Positions 1,864 to 61,566 of a stretch of DNA of 64,000 bases are shown piece by piece. Location: positions 45,570,001-45,634,000 of the forward strand of contig OX597828.1 of NCBI GenBank assembly GCA_951406725.2, given 5' to 3'. This DNA comes from Octopus vulgaris. Its lineage: Eukaryota. How positions within the stretch are numbered: the stretch's first letter is position 1; each line of letters opens with the position of its first letter. The translations under genes were made by a program, and so were the position numbers. A model generated the notes under the pieces. It had not been told where the DNA came from, searched no databases, and worked only from the letters and a program-made list of their open reading frames with translations.

Positions 1864-2560
1864 TAGTTAGTGGTAATCATGTATGGCACTATTTCATTCT
1901 GTTTTGAAATCTTCAGCATGATTTCCCTTGTAGCATATTTTAATTCTTATATAGTTAGTGGTAATCATGTATGGCACTATTTCATTCTGTTTTGAAATCT
2001 TCAGCATGATTTCCCCTGTAGCATATTTTAATTCTTATATAGTTAGTGGTAATCATGTATGGCACTATTTCATTCTGTTTTGAAATCTTCAGCATGATTT
2101 CGCCTGTAGCATATTTTAATTCTTATATAGTTAGTGGTAATCATGTATGGCACTATTTCATTCTGTTTTGAAATCTTCAGCATGATTTCGCCTGTAGCAT
2201 ATTTTAATTCTTATATAGTTAGTGGTAATCATGTATGGCACTATTTCATTCTGTTTTGAAATCTTCAGCATGATTTCCCATGTAGCATATTTTAATTCTT
2301 ATATAGTTAGTGGTAATCATGTATGGCACTATTTCATTCTGTTTTGAAATCTTCAGCATGATTTCCCATGTAGCATATTTTACTTCTTATTTAGTTAGTG
2401 GTAATCATGTATGGCACTATTTCATTCTGTTTTGAAATCTTCAGCATGATTTCCCCTGTAGCATATTTTACTTCTTATATAGTTAGTGGTAATCATGTAT
2501 GGCACTATTTCATTCTGTTTTGAAATCTTCAGCATGATTTCCCCGGCAGCATATTTTTAA
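1864..2560. repeat. 88-bp tandem repeat, 8 nearly identical copies
   Basis: Unit TAGTTAGTGGTAATCATG..TTCTTATA restarts at 1864, 1952, 2040, 2128, 2216, 2304, 2392, 2480; variation nearly confined to the tttcccttg/tttcgcctg/tttcccatg stretch. Confidence 0.97.
1875..1923 (-). ncRNA. Putative minimal type I hammerhead ribozyme (first of 8, one per 88-bp monomer)
   Basis: Minus strand: AATCATG | CTGAAGA | T-TTC-AAAACA-GAA-T | GAAA | TAGTGCCA | TA | CATGATT. Perfect 7-bp stem I, canonical CUGANGA and GAAA, UH site; stems II and III weak. Confidence 0.65.
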
Positions 2561-2656
2561 TTAAGTATATTACTATATTACGAAGAGAGACGCTTCACTG
2601 AAATTAAACATGAAAAGAATTACAGTATGGATGGAATTCAAGGAGAATTTTCTGTT

Positions 2657-2846
2657 TTTCTTCTTCTTCTTCTTCTTCTTCTTCTTCTTCTTCTTCTTCT
2701 TCGTCTACAACTACTACTACTACTTCTTTTTCTTCTTCTTCTTCTTCTTCTTCTTCTTCTTCTTCTTCTTCTTCTTCTTCTTCTTCTTCTTCTTCTTCTT
2801 CTTCTTCTTCTTCTTCTTCTTCTTCTTCTTCTTCTTCTTCTTCTTC
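2657..2846. repeat. (CTT)n microsatellite
   Basis: Direct reading. Confidence 0.97.
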
Positions 2847-3751
2847 ATAGAACGTTAGTAGTTTAGCAATCGAAAGAAAGAAGCAGCAGTCTAAGTGTGT
2901 AGCTAGAAAATAAACACCGTTTTGCTTTATTCATCTATAAAATGTTCATGCGTATATGCGTCTATTGCGAGCAGACAAACACGTCGTCTTAAACTAGAAC
3001 CTTTCAATTTTCATCCAGTGGAACATCGAGATATGATAGCTGGCAGCTGTAAAGAGAGAGAGAGAGAGAGAGAGGATTACTAGAGCTGAGCTGGAACTCA
3101 TTTATAGCTGAGTCAACGGGAGCAATGTGAAAAGATATGCTTTAATCGTAAACATAAAGTGCAGCTTGATTCAATGGAGGCAACACCTTAACCACGAGAA
3201 TACGCGCATTCTAATTAGGCAAAAGGCTTATTCACATTTTAATGAGGAGCCTTCAGCTGTTGTCATCGATTTCTTTCGAAGAAGAAGTTAGTGATCCTTA
3301 ATGAATGTTTAAATAACCATAACATCTTTCCGTTTAATCCTCAGCTAAATCTATCCCAACATATGTATGCCTCCCTATATTTCTTCATTAACGACCCACG
3401 CTGAATTGGTCATAGATTAATTATTACACAGATGCAGGCAACTTAAGAAGCAATGGTGTATATCATAAGCAAGGCATTGAATTACGAAGGAGAGTGTGCA
3501 GTAGCGTGATCGGTTGGGAGTGGAGTAGGCTTGAAGTAGTGGTTCTTATTATCTGGTATGATGGATATGTTTTGAAGAGTGGTGCTGATGGTGATGAAGT
3601 ATGTGCCATTCCACTATAACAAGGTTTAATTTATCATCAAACTTCTTAATTTGATTATTTTTATAATTTGTCAATTTCAATTTATATTTCACTGGAAATT
3701 TGATTGGTCTTTTCTTTTTTAGCTTTGACGAGTTTTTGGTATTGTACAGGC

Positions 3752-4325
3752 CTCTCTCACTCTCTCTCTCTCTCTCTCTCTCTCTCTCTCTCTCTATCTC
3801 TTTCTCGCTCTCTCTCTCTCTCTTTCTCGCTCTCGCTCTCTCTCTCCCTCATTCTCTATTTGTTTACATACCTACACACATACACGTTTATGTAGGCATA
3901 TATGTGTGTGTGTGTGCGTGTACTTGTATGTATATATTGTGTATGTATGTATGTACGTGTACTTGTGCATGAATATATATCGACACATGTATATGTGTAT
4001 ATGTGCATCTACGTATTTGTATATATATATATATATATAACTTTATATCTATATGTATATATATATATTTGTGCACACACACACTCACATACATATATAT
4101 ATATATATATATATATATATATATATATATATATGCATAAAAATGTGTGTGTGTACACATATACATATGCAATATATACATGTATGTATGTATATATAAC
4201 ATTCATACATTTGTACATGTGCTTCGTATATATATATATATATATATATATATATATATATATATGTATGTATGTATGTATGTATGTGTGTGTGTGTGTG
4301 CGTATGTCTAATATACGTATGTGTG
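3752..4325. repeat. (CT)n followed by mixed (TA)/(TG)/(TATG) microsatellites
   Basis: Direct reading. Confidence 0.92.
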
Positions 4326-4514
4326 ATTAGTTGAAACTGTAAAAACATGATGAACTCAGTTTTAATATTAACGCCATTTTAAAACTGATTTATGATAAAG
4401 AGGTCTGCGAGGATGAAAAAAAGTACAGCCGCCACTACCAACATCCTCACCACTACAACCTTCACCTCTACAATGGCCTACCACCAGGGAACCACCATTA
4501 GCAACATCATGTCT

Positions 4515-59037: not shown

Positions 59038-60501
59038 TATATATATATATATGTATATATATATATATACATATATGTGTGTATGTATGTATGTGTGTGT
59101 GTGTGTGTGCATGTGTGTGTATGTGTGTTATGTTCTTATAAGGATATATTTTGGTCTCGACGAAATGACGTAGATTATAAATTCAGCGTCTTGAATACAA
59201 GAATGTATATTCTGTATTAGAGCGTATTGAATTGCACACACACACACGCGCGCACACACACACACACACACACACACACACACACACACACACACACACA
59301 CACACACACACACATACACACACATACACACACACACACATACACACACATACACATACATACATACACACACACATATACACACATACACACACACACA
59401 CACACACACATACACACACACATGCACACACAAACAGGCACATACAGACACACACGTACGCATGTATGTATGCATTCATTTATGTATGTGTGTATGTATA
59501 CCTAGGTTTGTGTGAGCACACACAAACACACCGATATCTCGCTTAGCAATCTGCATTGTTTTTAATCATAAAAATAAAAATTTAGACGTTAATTGCTCCA
59601 AATAAATGCTAAACATTGCTAATGGTTGCTTTAAAATATCAATTACCGCAATGCGCATCGATAATATGCGTGTGACTGTTCGTCTTCTCGTTCATTCAGT
59701 TATTCGGTGAGTTTGCATGTTTAGCATGCGTGCATGCTGTGCTCATTTGATCTTCGCTAGTCTTTTGTCTTTAAACTTTTGAATTCATTCACCCTTTGAA
59801 AATGCCAACACGAAAGGATGAAGATGAGGCGGTGTGAACTATTGATTATACAAAGAAACGGAAAACAATGACATTAGAAACGAAACACGTGAAAATAAAT
59901 GAACAGAAGAAAGCTGTAAAAACCGATAAGAAATTGTTATTTAACTTCAAATTTAACTCAATCAATTGCTGACATGATTTTCAATAATAAAGATTAATAT
60001 TTGGATGAAGCTAAAAGTGCGCATTCCTTACAAATATACGAGGGTATTTTATAACGATGGAGCCAGTCGTATTCTTCACATGGAGAAGCATTTATCAACA
60101 CGGATAAATGATTACACACGGCGATTATTTACGCCATTGATCATTAATTATTAATCATCCCCAAGCTGTTATCTGTACTAAAGCCTTATTTTGATAAGGT
60201 CGAAAGTTAACATGAAGAAATATTTACTGCAAACAAATGCTACAACGAAAATCTGCGATGTGGTAGGACTTACGTTGCAATGCGTATTTTTTTTAAATAA
60301 AAAAAATGGTGGGGGAGTAAAAAAAAATTGCCGTTTACATGAAACGGATTTATTTCGGAATTACATTCCAGCAAGAAACTGCATTGGAAAAACTAAAAAA
60401 CACTGATGGCAGATTTCAACAATAATTTTTAACGCTGTTAAAGTTGGTTAATGTCATCATATAGACTCGGTATGATAATTGCTTCTATATTATAGAGGTA
60501 G

Positions 60502-60806
60502 TGGAGGCACATGGCCTAGTGGTTAGAGCAGCTGACTCGCGGTTGAGGGATCGCGGGTTCGAATCTCAGACCGAGCCATGTGTATGTTTACGAGCGAAAC
60601 ATCTAAGCTCCATGCAGCTCCGGCAGAAGGTAATGGCAGAACTTCTGCTGACTCTTTCGTCACAACTTTCTCTCACTCTTTCCTCCTGCATCTTGCAGTT
60701 CACCTGCGACGCACCAGTATCCCGTCCACGTGGGGAACCTTTATGCTAAGGAAACTGGGAAACCGGCCCTTATGAGCCAGGCGTGGCTCGAGAAGGAACA
60801 AACAAT
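60502..60806 (+). mobile_element. SINE with B-type head and a third 3' module
   Basis: GGAGGCACATGGCCTAGTGGTTAGAGCAGC..GGGTTCGAATC, CACAACTTTCTCTCACTCTT shared with family B. Confidence 0.75.
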
Positions 60807-61024
60807 TATAGAGGTGATTGTCGGTGGAGATTATAAAAGCCAATTTTGTGAATCGAATTGAAAATAAGGGCTCCGTAAAAGTTATTCTATATAAAAAAGC
60901 TAATTGTTTATTTATTGTCTGCGTATTATTCTTATAAAATACACTGAACATTCTGAGTTGTTGCTCTTTGCTTCTTAGCCATAAATGTGTTCTCTCTTTG
61001 TTTGTGGATGTCTAACTATATTAA

Positions 61025-61234
61025 TTACTGGAGATAACTTAGAACAATTGTCGTGCTGAAGACGCCAGTCAAACCTGAAACAAGCGTCATCAACCATCCT
61101 CTCTCTCCAGACAACAAGCCAGTTCCTTTATTTAATGGCATGTCAACTTCGAAGGACTTTCGATTCTTGAGAATATGTCTTCTTTTTCTCATATGAAACT
61201 GGACTCTTTTGGCATTTGATAAATGCGACAAAGC
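61025..61234 (-). CDS. Candidate terminal coding exon with hydrophobic C-terminus
   Basis: Minus: ctctgcttctacag|GCT, 69 open codons ALSHLSNAKRVQFHMRKRRHILK..WLMTLVSGLTGVFSTTIVLSYLQ*, AATAAA ~110 nt downstream (60907-60916); non-repetitive DNA. Confidence 0.5.
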   Translation of the reverse strand, partial: ALSHLSNAKRVQFHMRKRRHILKNRKSFEVDMPLNKGTGLLSGERGWLMTLVSGLTGVFSTTIVLSYLQ

Positions 61235-61516
61235 CTGTAGAAGCAGAGGTACTATTAATGAATCAGGATTTATGTTGTATGGTTTGTGATGTACCTGCAT
61301 TTGTGTGTGGATATTGTGTATACACACACATATATATGCATGTATATATATATACATATACACGCATTATGCGAGTAAGAATATATACCTACATACATAT
61401 ATATATATATATGTGTATATATATATATATATATATAATTGCAACGTGGAAGGTGTTTATAAGCCATTTAAGAAACTCACAAAAGCCGTTCGATTCACTT
61501 CAACATTTAAGTTTAA

Positions 61517-61566
61517 TTTGTCAAAATATTTTCGTCGCTAAAATCCGCGACCTGTTCACTGACAAA
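61517..61566 (-). ncRNA. Putative minimal hammerhead, G3-C8 core
   Basis: Minus: TTTGTCA | GTGAACA | G | GTCGC-8nt-GCGAC | GAAA | ATAT | TT | TGACAAA; perfect stems I and II; in a ~170-bp module next to (TA)n. Confidence 0.75.

Follow-up and report, generated by a model that had tools for sequence, protein, structure and literature searches.

We have analysed a 64,000-nt window of the Octopus vulgaris genome (assembly GCA_951406725.2, contig OX597828.1, positions 45,570,001 to 45,634,000 of the forward strand), and all coordinates below are those of this window. From the letters alone, an earlier reading, referred to here as the original prediction, had proposed a repertoire of hammerhead ribozyme motifs in which nucleotides 3 and 8 change together. 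According to our analysis, it is quite probable that these motifs are minimal type I hammerhead folds carried by the terminal repeats of several Penelope-like families and by one retrozyme-type tandem, with 3 and 8 complementary family by family, likely since the master elements have been selected for a predicted self-cleaving fold which needs this pair. The families themselves are established, and so are their inverted or tandem insertions ending in (TA)n, the link between a reverse transcriptase (RT) and GIY-YIG frame and a G3-C8 motif, and the presence of three different pairs at the homologous site of related elements.

Hammerhead folds in the window

The window belongs to a genome of 2.8 Gb, with 37% GC and abundant microsatellites. 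With a permissive descriptor, in which N3, N7 and N8 were unconstrained, we have found 15 folds in the window, 14 of them with a Watson-Crick 3-8 pair, while 60 block shuffles gave on average 1.0 folds and 0.27 paired ones; that is, shuffled DNA does not reach a similar density of folds. A single 88-nt unit, repeated in tandem, accounts for eight of them, and the 15 folds represent seven families. The features are collected in Table 1.

All nine boxes named in the original prediction were located (1910, 20479, 28946 and 61553 on the minus strand), whereas the full fold claimed for them stands only in part: six (1910, 20242, 20662, 23761, 56009, and 61553) pass the scan, and 20479, the 28946 copy, and 23666 fail, the last with every descriptor used. 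Two motifs that had not been listed, 23540 (minus, U3-A8) and 22660 (minus, G3·G8), were also observed. The type I order of three stems around the core is present at 1910, 20242, 20662, 22660, 23540, 23761, 56009, and 61553, and absent at 23666 and in the 28946 copy; the latter is without 6 nt (TGTCCC) that its relatives have, a stretch running from the last part of stem III through the cleavage site into the first part of stem I'. The window-type families contain the core G5, A6, A9, G12, A13, A14, A15.1-U16.1, and H17, all imposed by the descriptor except A9, which was left free in the family test below and is nevertheless seen in 7/7 families.

Rfam at its gathering score gives no hammerhead match in the window, the C3-G8 motifs included, and at E ≤ 10 there is no hammerhead among the 150 of 435 matches listed, the matches being driven by microsatellites. 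We infer that this failure is a limit of the models for minimal hammerhead forms.

The predicted association with (TA)n holds for most motifs. A (TA)n run lies within 260 nt downstream at 8/10 sites, compared with 24% of random positions, though the sites are not independent; the exceptions are 1910 and 28946, with the nearest downstream runs at 724 nt and 331 nt, respectively.

The C3-G8 families represented by 1910, 20242, 20479/20662, 22660, and 28946 are all dispersed repeats. The 88-nt unit of 1910 has genomic relatives at 79–95% identity that are single copies, and with one array only among 44 matches, a dispersed tiny retrozyme was rejected; the array is a single local amplification. 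As a separate observation, C4 (CCGANGA) is frequent in three families (20242 in the window; L037, L067, L106, L129, and L146 among the sampled loci, which are given L numbers here), too common for one-off decay.

Table 1 Hammerhead motifs of the window and the repeats and elements carrying them.
Feature	Position	Strand	Remarks
Local tandem of an 88-nt unit, 7.9 units	1864..2562	-	Piece of an old dispersed repeat; each unit with a C3-G8 type I motif (first 1875-1923), U·U pair at stem II base
C3-G8 motif with C4 (CCGAUGA)	20238..20275	+	3-bp stem II, stem III ACUC-U-GAGU; belongs to a family of repeats that has inverted partners
C3-G8 motif, inverted twin of 20657-20717	20430..20490	-	Stem II base damaged in this copy, hence scan failure
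C3-G8 motif with long bulged stem II	20657..20717	+	Repeat family
Uncompensated G3·G8 copy of a C3-G8 family	22611..22672	-	83/88 pattern matches of the family are C3-G8
Young tandem family of retrozyme type (non-coding, 362-nt unit), insertion	23290..23960	.	Inverted partial copy and 412-nt direct copy between (TA)n runs
U3-A8 type I motif of the inverted copy (box 23540)	23510..23553	-	
Ill-folding hammerhead-like motif (box 23666)	23658..23712	+	Monomer junction, 3' insertion end
U3-A8 type I motif	23755..23796	+	Palindromic stem III ACGCGU, C17
C3-G8 motif, copy with deletion	28905..28959	-	Intact relatives in L032
5'-truncated Penelope-like element	54436..56130	+	GIY-YIG frame remnant 54436-55110, 3' end on (TA)n
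U3-A8 motif of the truncated Penelope-like element	56006..56048	+	Palindromic stem III, 3-bp stem I, A17
5'-truncated (~550 nt) 3' end of an autonomous Penelope-like family	61437..61983	-	Intact copy of the family encodes P0001
G3-C8 minimal type I hammerhead motif	61517..61566	-	Predicted cut after 61524

Complementarity of positions 3 and 8 at the family level

We have sampled 120 stretches of 10 kb (1.2 Mb), 20 of which lie beside the window and 100 at fixed steps on eight contigs. A strict descriptor with U4 gave 33 matches in this sample, of which 27 are paired at 3-8 (17 C-G, 6 U-A, 2 G-C, and 2 A-U); four shuffles gave 6.5 matches with 1.75 paired, and reversed sequence gave a single match, which is unpaired. 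Because copies are not independent, the matches were further clustered into families, with N3, N7, N8, and N9 free, and the families at two or more loci were kept. In the sample plus window, 7/7 multi-locus families are paired (4 C-G, 2 U-A, and 1 G-C), compared with 2/9 control families from reversed sequence and six decoy cores. An exact permutation of position 8 across the seven families gives 48/5040 = 0.0095. With all 271 sequences, this becomes 10/10 families (p = 0.0013; controls 4/14), at least two of the three added families coming from targeted searches. Overall, the complementarity of N3 and N8 in families clearly exceeds chance.

The statement that position 8 follows every change at position 3 is therefore correct for families but not for single copies, since decayed copies break the rule, as 22660 does with its uncompensated pair. 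The argument that three different compensated pairs would not arise by decay is also confirmed: the non-canonical pairs are master states of large families. As for the third pair, G3-C8 is real, though it belongs to a single lineage, and no A3-U8 family emerged in the family clustering or in the genome pattern count. Actually, the A3-U8 pattern was rejected with a genome count of 3,067, less than the 3,658 of the reversed control, and its sole repeated match ends in GGGTTAA and is without stem I. This match is presumably the end of a DNA transposon.

One may argue that AT-rich repetitive DNA produces such folds by chance, and that the covariation comes from choosing complementary cases. Loose descriptors do yield many chance matches (84 per 1.2 Mb in shuffles when stems of 3 bp are allowed), 23666 fails, the G·G copy had been overlooked, and Rfam finds nothing. 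However, the shuffled, reversed, and decoy-core controls behave differently from the real sequence, the motifs sit at the 3' ends of RT/GIY-YIG elements, and their anatomy agrees with that published for Penelope hammerheads. At the family level this explanation is already refuted, and as a whole we regard it as very improbable.

A Penelope-like family with a G3-C8 motif

The motif of box 61553 has a 7-bp stem I, an extra G after A9, a 5-bp stem II, a palindromic AAUAUU stem III, and U17. A 22-mer around the box has 5,534 exact copies in the genome and none in the reversed control. As the original prediction expected, canonical CUGANGA descriptors miss such motifs: at least these 5,534 G3-C8 copies and the 1,132 U3-A8 copies described below are overlooked in the genome.

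The box GUGAACA is kept in all 36 family motifs scored (best 30 loci), and it is still G3-C8 in older copies near 85% identity. Only 16 copies are altered at both 3 and 8, and none of them is C3-G8, by which a C3-G8 subfamily within this family was rejected. Between old and young subfamilies, in a comparison set of which six loci had been chosen for changes at 3 and 8, differences occur at 4/8 loop, 0/42 core or stem, and 4/90 flank positions; the loop thus appears free to vary, while these counts do not show the core to be under tighter constraint than the flanks. The more distant relatives L286, L287, and L296 have GUGACCA and new loops. Independent G3-C8 families were not obtained, as there are 618 pattern matches against 707 in the control, and five followed among the first 100 listed comprise three that look like older members of the same lineage and two non-folding sequences. 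In four other organisms, contigs match the end of the G3-C8 element with no change listed at 3 or 8, the box being covered thinly or not at all in three of them.

P0001 is a single intact frame of 1025 aa with the RT motif YVDD and, C-terminally, a GIY-YIG domain (PF01541, E = 1.8e-5). Pfam RVT_1 has no match in it; its homologs are annotated as reverse transcriptase domain proteins, the nearest named one being labelled Octopus vulgaris. The link between this frame and the G3-C8 motif is seen again in a random locus (L089). According to published criteria, the presence of a CxxxCxxC linker and of CCHH-type residues is compatible with Neptune or Nematis and rules out Hydra, our tree being without named references. 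In addition, the insertions of the family show 5' truncation, tandem or inverted terminal repeats, an optional tail, and a microsatellite target, in agreement with the anatomy described for Penelope-like elements by Craig et al. 2021 (PMC8557442).

Relatives with other pairs at the homologous site

The sister family P0002 of the same genome shares 54% protein identity with P0001 (Shimodaira–Hasegawa-like approximate likelihood ratio, SH-aLRT, of 100 in a quick tree). At the homologous place it has C3-G8 with C9, an extra G, a similar stem II, and U17. In this very young family (L256, L263), 37/38 scored copies are CUGAUGC with C9 and the extra G. Among metagenome relatives, L241 (45%) and L246 (29%) have C3-G8, and L243 (46%), which is from another animal, has U3-A8 with C9 as read by eye. 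No motif was found in the available DNA of L242, L244, and L245; by script, a usable motif was obtained for only two of the six long metagenome relatives. C9 is, in its own right, a recurring core change of the P0002/L243 clade.

The simplest reading of these relatives would be that C3-G8 is ancestral, with separate changes to G3-C8 and U3-A8. The possibility that U17 is a co-adaptation to G3 was rejected, for the C3-G8 sister, L241, and L243 also have U17.

Two families with U3-A8

The motif of the 362-nt family has 1,132 exact genome copies, and identical copies of the unit are found on many contigs. Each unit (period 362) contains one type I hammerhead motif, and its longest Met frame is of 38 codons. 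Folded as a circle, the unit has a minimum free energy of -121 kcal/mol (z = -8.9 against 60 shuffles), and two of its motifs are predicted to co-fold into a double hammerhead. The insertions have two alternative end sites, both on (TA)n, represented by 18 and 13 ends. A 359-nt tandem unit in L052 has C3-G8 and aligns with the 362-nt unit outside the ribozyme (z = 4.0, above all 300 shuffles); between the two units, pairs are exchanged also in all three stems.

At the monomer junction, box 23666 was rejected as a second ribozyme: an A is inserted ahead of position 3 and three bases are inserted behind A9, there is a bulge, and the box sits where copies end on (TA)n. Judging from its sequence, it is probably not a second active ribozyme. 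About 46 nt of this junction are identical between 362-nt subfamilies that are otherwise ~87% alike, and the conserved stretch is possibly a protein-binding or priming signal, or a relic second hammerhead.

For the element of box 56009, the frame remnant matches PF01541 (E = 1.8e-6), and the frame is seen in 6/19 other loci examined. U3-A8 is present in 19/19 scored copies. Regarding the original proposal that the modules are Penelope-like or non-autonomous, the Penelope-like ends and the retrozyme-type tandem agree with it, while two modules or more derive from autonomous elements by truncation and are not non-autonomous.

How the motifs may act

We propose the following course for elements of this kind. 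Two motifs of a tandem transcript would pair through their palindromic stem III, as suggested by the work in PMC4209133 and PMC7229834, and would then cleave after N17, a reaction that is probably slow or assisted by the protein of the element. Cutting would release unit-length RNA, which would be a circle for the 362-nt unit. Nicked (TA)n DNA might then serve the RT for priming at an internal site downstream of the ribozyme, a step based on PMC11167929. From an ancestral C3-G8, U3-A8 would have arisen more than once and G3-C8 once here, in a clade already with U17, by which mispairing between G3 and C17 would be avoided. Inserted copies would afterwards decay without compensation. The U17 of this clade, which predates the swap, may have permitted it, because a G3-C8 variant performs better with G17 than with C17 (data not shown in Kalweit et al. 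2013, PMC3884650).

A more specific proposal is that a recently active Penelope-like family runs on a natural and catalytically competent G3-C8 hammerhead, a pair otherwise known to us only from a weak rescue mutant of the laboratory, that one clade has sampled C-G, U-A, and G-C, and that the pre-existing U17 (perhaps with the protein of the element) made the inversion viable. We put this forward tentatively, with slightly less than even confidence.

Several points weigh against a selected, self-cleaving fold. In the best co-fold, the all-A-U stem III of the G3-C8 motif is not formed across strands, and the 56009 family has a weak 3-bp stem I and A17. The G-C pair is found in one lineage, so that the third pair is one event. 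The tree is a quick one of 26 rows without bootstrap, in which the hammerhead is known in 5. Moreover, in the work of Frangieh et al. 2024 (PMC11167929), the hammerhead of a Penelope element is dispensable for insertion in vitro, cuts only with protein, and no read ends at the cut site.

Another explanation is that the fold is real and kept, but the G3-C8 family (perhaps others) no longer cuts usefully, the fold being retained as a protein-binding or priming signal and the swap having drifted under relaxed catalytic selection. The dispensability in vitro is its main support. It is also favoured by the poor cutting of minimal hammerheads even as dimers (PMC4209133), by the partial rescue only in the C3G/G8C double mutant, by C9 in place of A9 in the sister families, which may mean relaxed catalysis, and by the flanks of the G3-C8 subfamilies, which match the core in conservation. 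Yet the 3-8 pair is a part of the active conformation (PMC3884650) and is complementary in every one of the ten families, and G3-C8 persists from the young members of the family to the old ones and to the more distant relatives, although both N7 and loop II vary among them. We consider a fold without useful cutting rather unlikely, and selection of the master elements for a self-cleaving fold remains our preferred explanation.

Other features of the window

Two repeat families show the elements of the core in reversed order. The first (~29490-29545, minus; box 29507) is young, with 98% copies in L006, L035, and L187 and relatives at 74–81%; GAAA lies upstream of CUGAAGA, and AGCC/GGCU are able to pair around them. 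The second (~35635-35690, minus; box 35645) has CCUU-C-GAAA-CGU before CUGAAGA-AGGGG and 4 relatives in the sampled loci, and is a candidate type II or rewired hammerhead. Single CUGANGA boxes at 27161 (minus) and 61056 (plus) are followed by a hairpin and a damaged GAAA; they have no relatives in the sampled loci and are possibly decayed hammerheads.

At 31678-32213 and 44256-44625 there are 184-nt tandem repeats of an abundant interspersed repeat, presumably an octopus short interspersed nuclear element. A 234-codon frame at 42874-43575 (minus) looks by eye like the frames of the long interspersed nuclear element type in L042 and L044, and has no Pfam match.

Comparison with known systems

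Minimal type I hammerheads have been described in metazoan Penelope-like elements by Cervera and de la Pena 2014 (PMC4209133), with many families per genome and a U3-A8 variant of ~1,300 matches in Schistosoma; natural U3-A8 covariation was also described by Perreault et al. 2011 (PMC3088659), together with tolerance of U·U at 10.1/11.1 and of a 2-bp stem II. The diverse repertoire claimed for the window is thus present, but neither the repertoire nor the U3-A8 swap is a novelty. The octopus motifs share with those of PMC4209133 the location in terminal repeats, the many families per genome, the extra nucleotide after A9, G10.1-C11.1, the palindromic stem III, the opposite-strand pairs 100–700 nt apart, and the U3-A8 variant.

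Like non-LTR (long terminal repeat) retrozymes (Cervera and de la Pena 2020, PMC7229834; bioRxiv 10.64898/2026.07.22.740005), for which such features are described, the 362-nt family has a non-coding tandem unit within 170–400 nt, one type I hammerhead, a strongly self-paired circle, and dispersed short arrays. Unlike them, it carries U3-A8 in its core, and its 5' copies are inverted and its 3' ends of two alternative kinds, as known from Penelope insertions; its circle is predicted from the fold.

The motifs 1910, 20242, and 20662 resemble the Hydra-clade Penelope hammerheads listed in a supplementary table of PMC8557442. Common to all is that stem II has a mismatch or an additional base at its foot, and the stem III ACUC-N-GAGU is shared with 20242 and 20662; in 20242, stem I is similar as well. 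No frame is linked to these three octopus families.

What appears new from the sequences is a single lineage with natural G3-C8, whose relatives have C-G and U-A at the homologous site, its ribozyme activity being predicted. In full-text literature searches and two supplements, natural G3-C8 was not found, although Lunse et al. 2017, Przybilski and Hammann 2007, and supplement 1 of PMC4209133 lie outside this coverage and could contain cases. In sequence comparisons, the tertiary pair 3-8 had been supported by C-G and U-A, to which a natural G-C, in an element of thousands of nearly identical copies, adds a third pair at a homologous site. The finding also bears on whether Penelope hammerheads must cut for element mobility, given one in vitro study saying that they need not, and with their C-G, G-C, and U-A pairs, the sister families offer substrates for such tests. 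If the G3-C8 form is indeed competent, they would be a natural allelic series for testing the role of the ribozyme in retrotransposition.

As for G3-C8 itself, no such core was found in the text and supplementary alignment of PMC4209133 as covered here, and PMC3088659, as far as covered, names only U3-A8 as an alternative at the 3-8 pair, whereas in the octopus a family whose frame is intact has G3-C8 as its master state. The octopus form is likely the natural version of a laboratory mutant, with its cutting predicted. Cleavage of a Penelope-element hammerhead returns in part when C3G and G8C are combined (PMC11167929), and, as far as these sources describe such mutants (also PMC8495972 and PMC3884650), they have the same G3-C8 core and show partial rescue; the core was engineered there, while here it is natural, fixed, and set in a U17 context.

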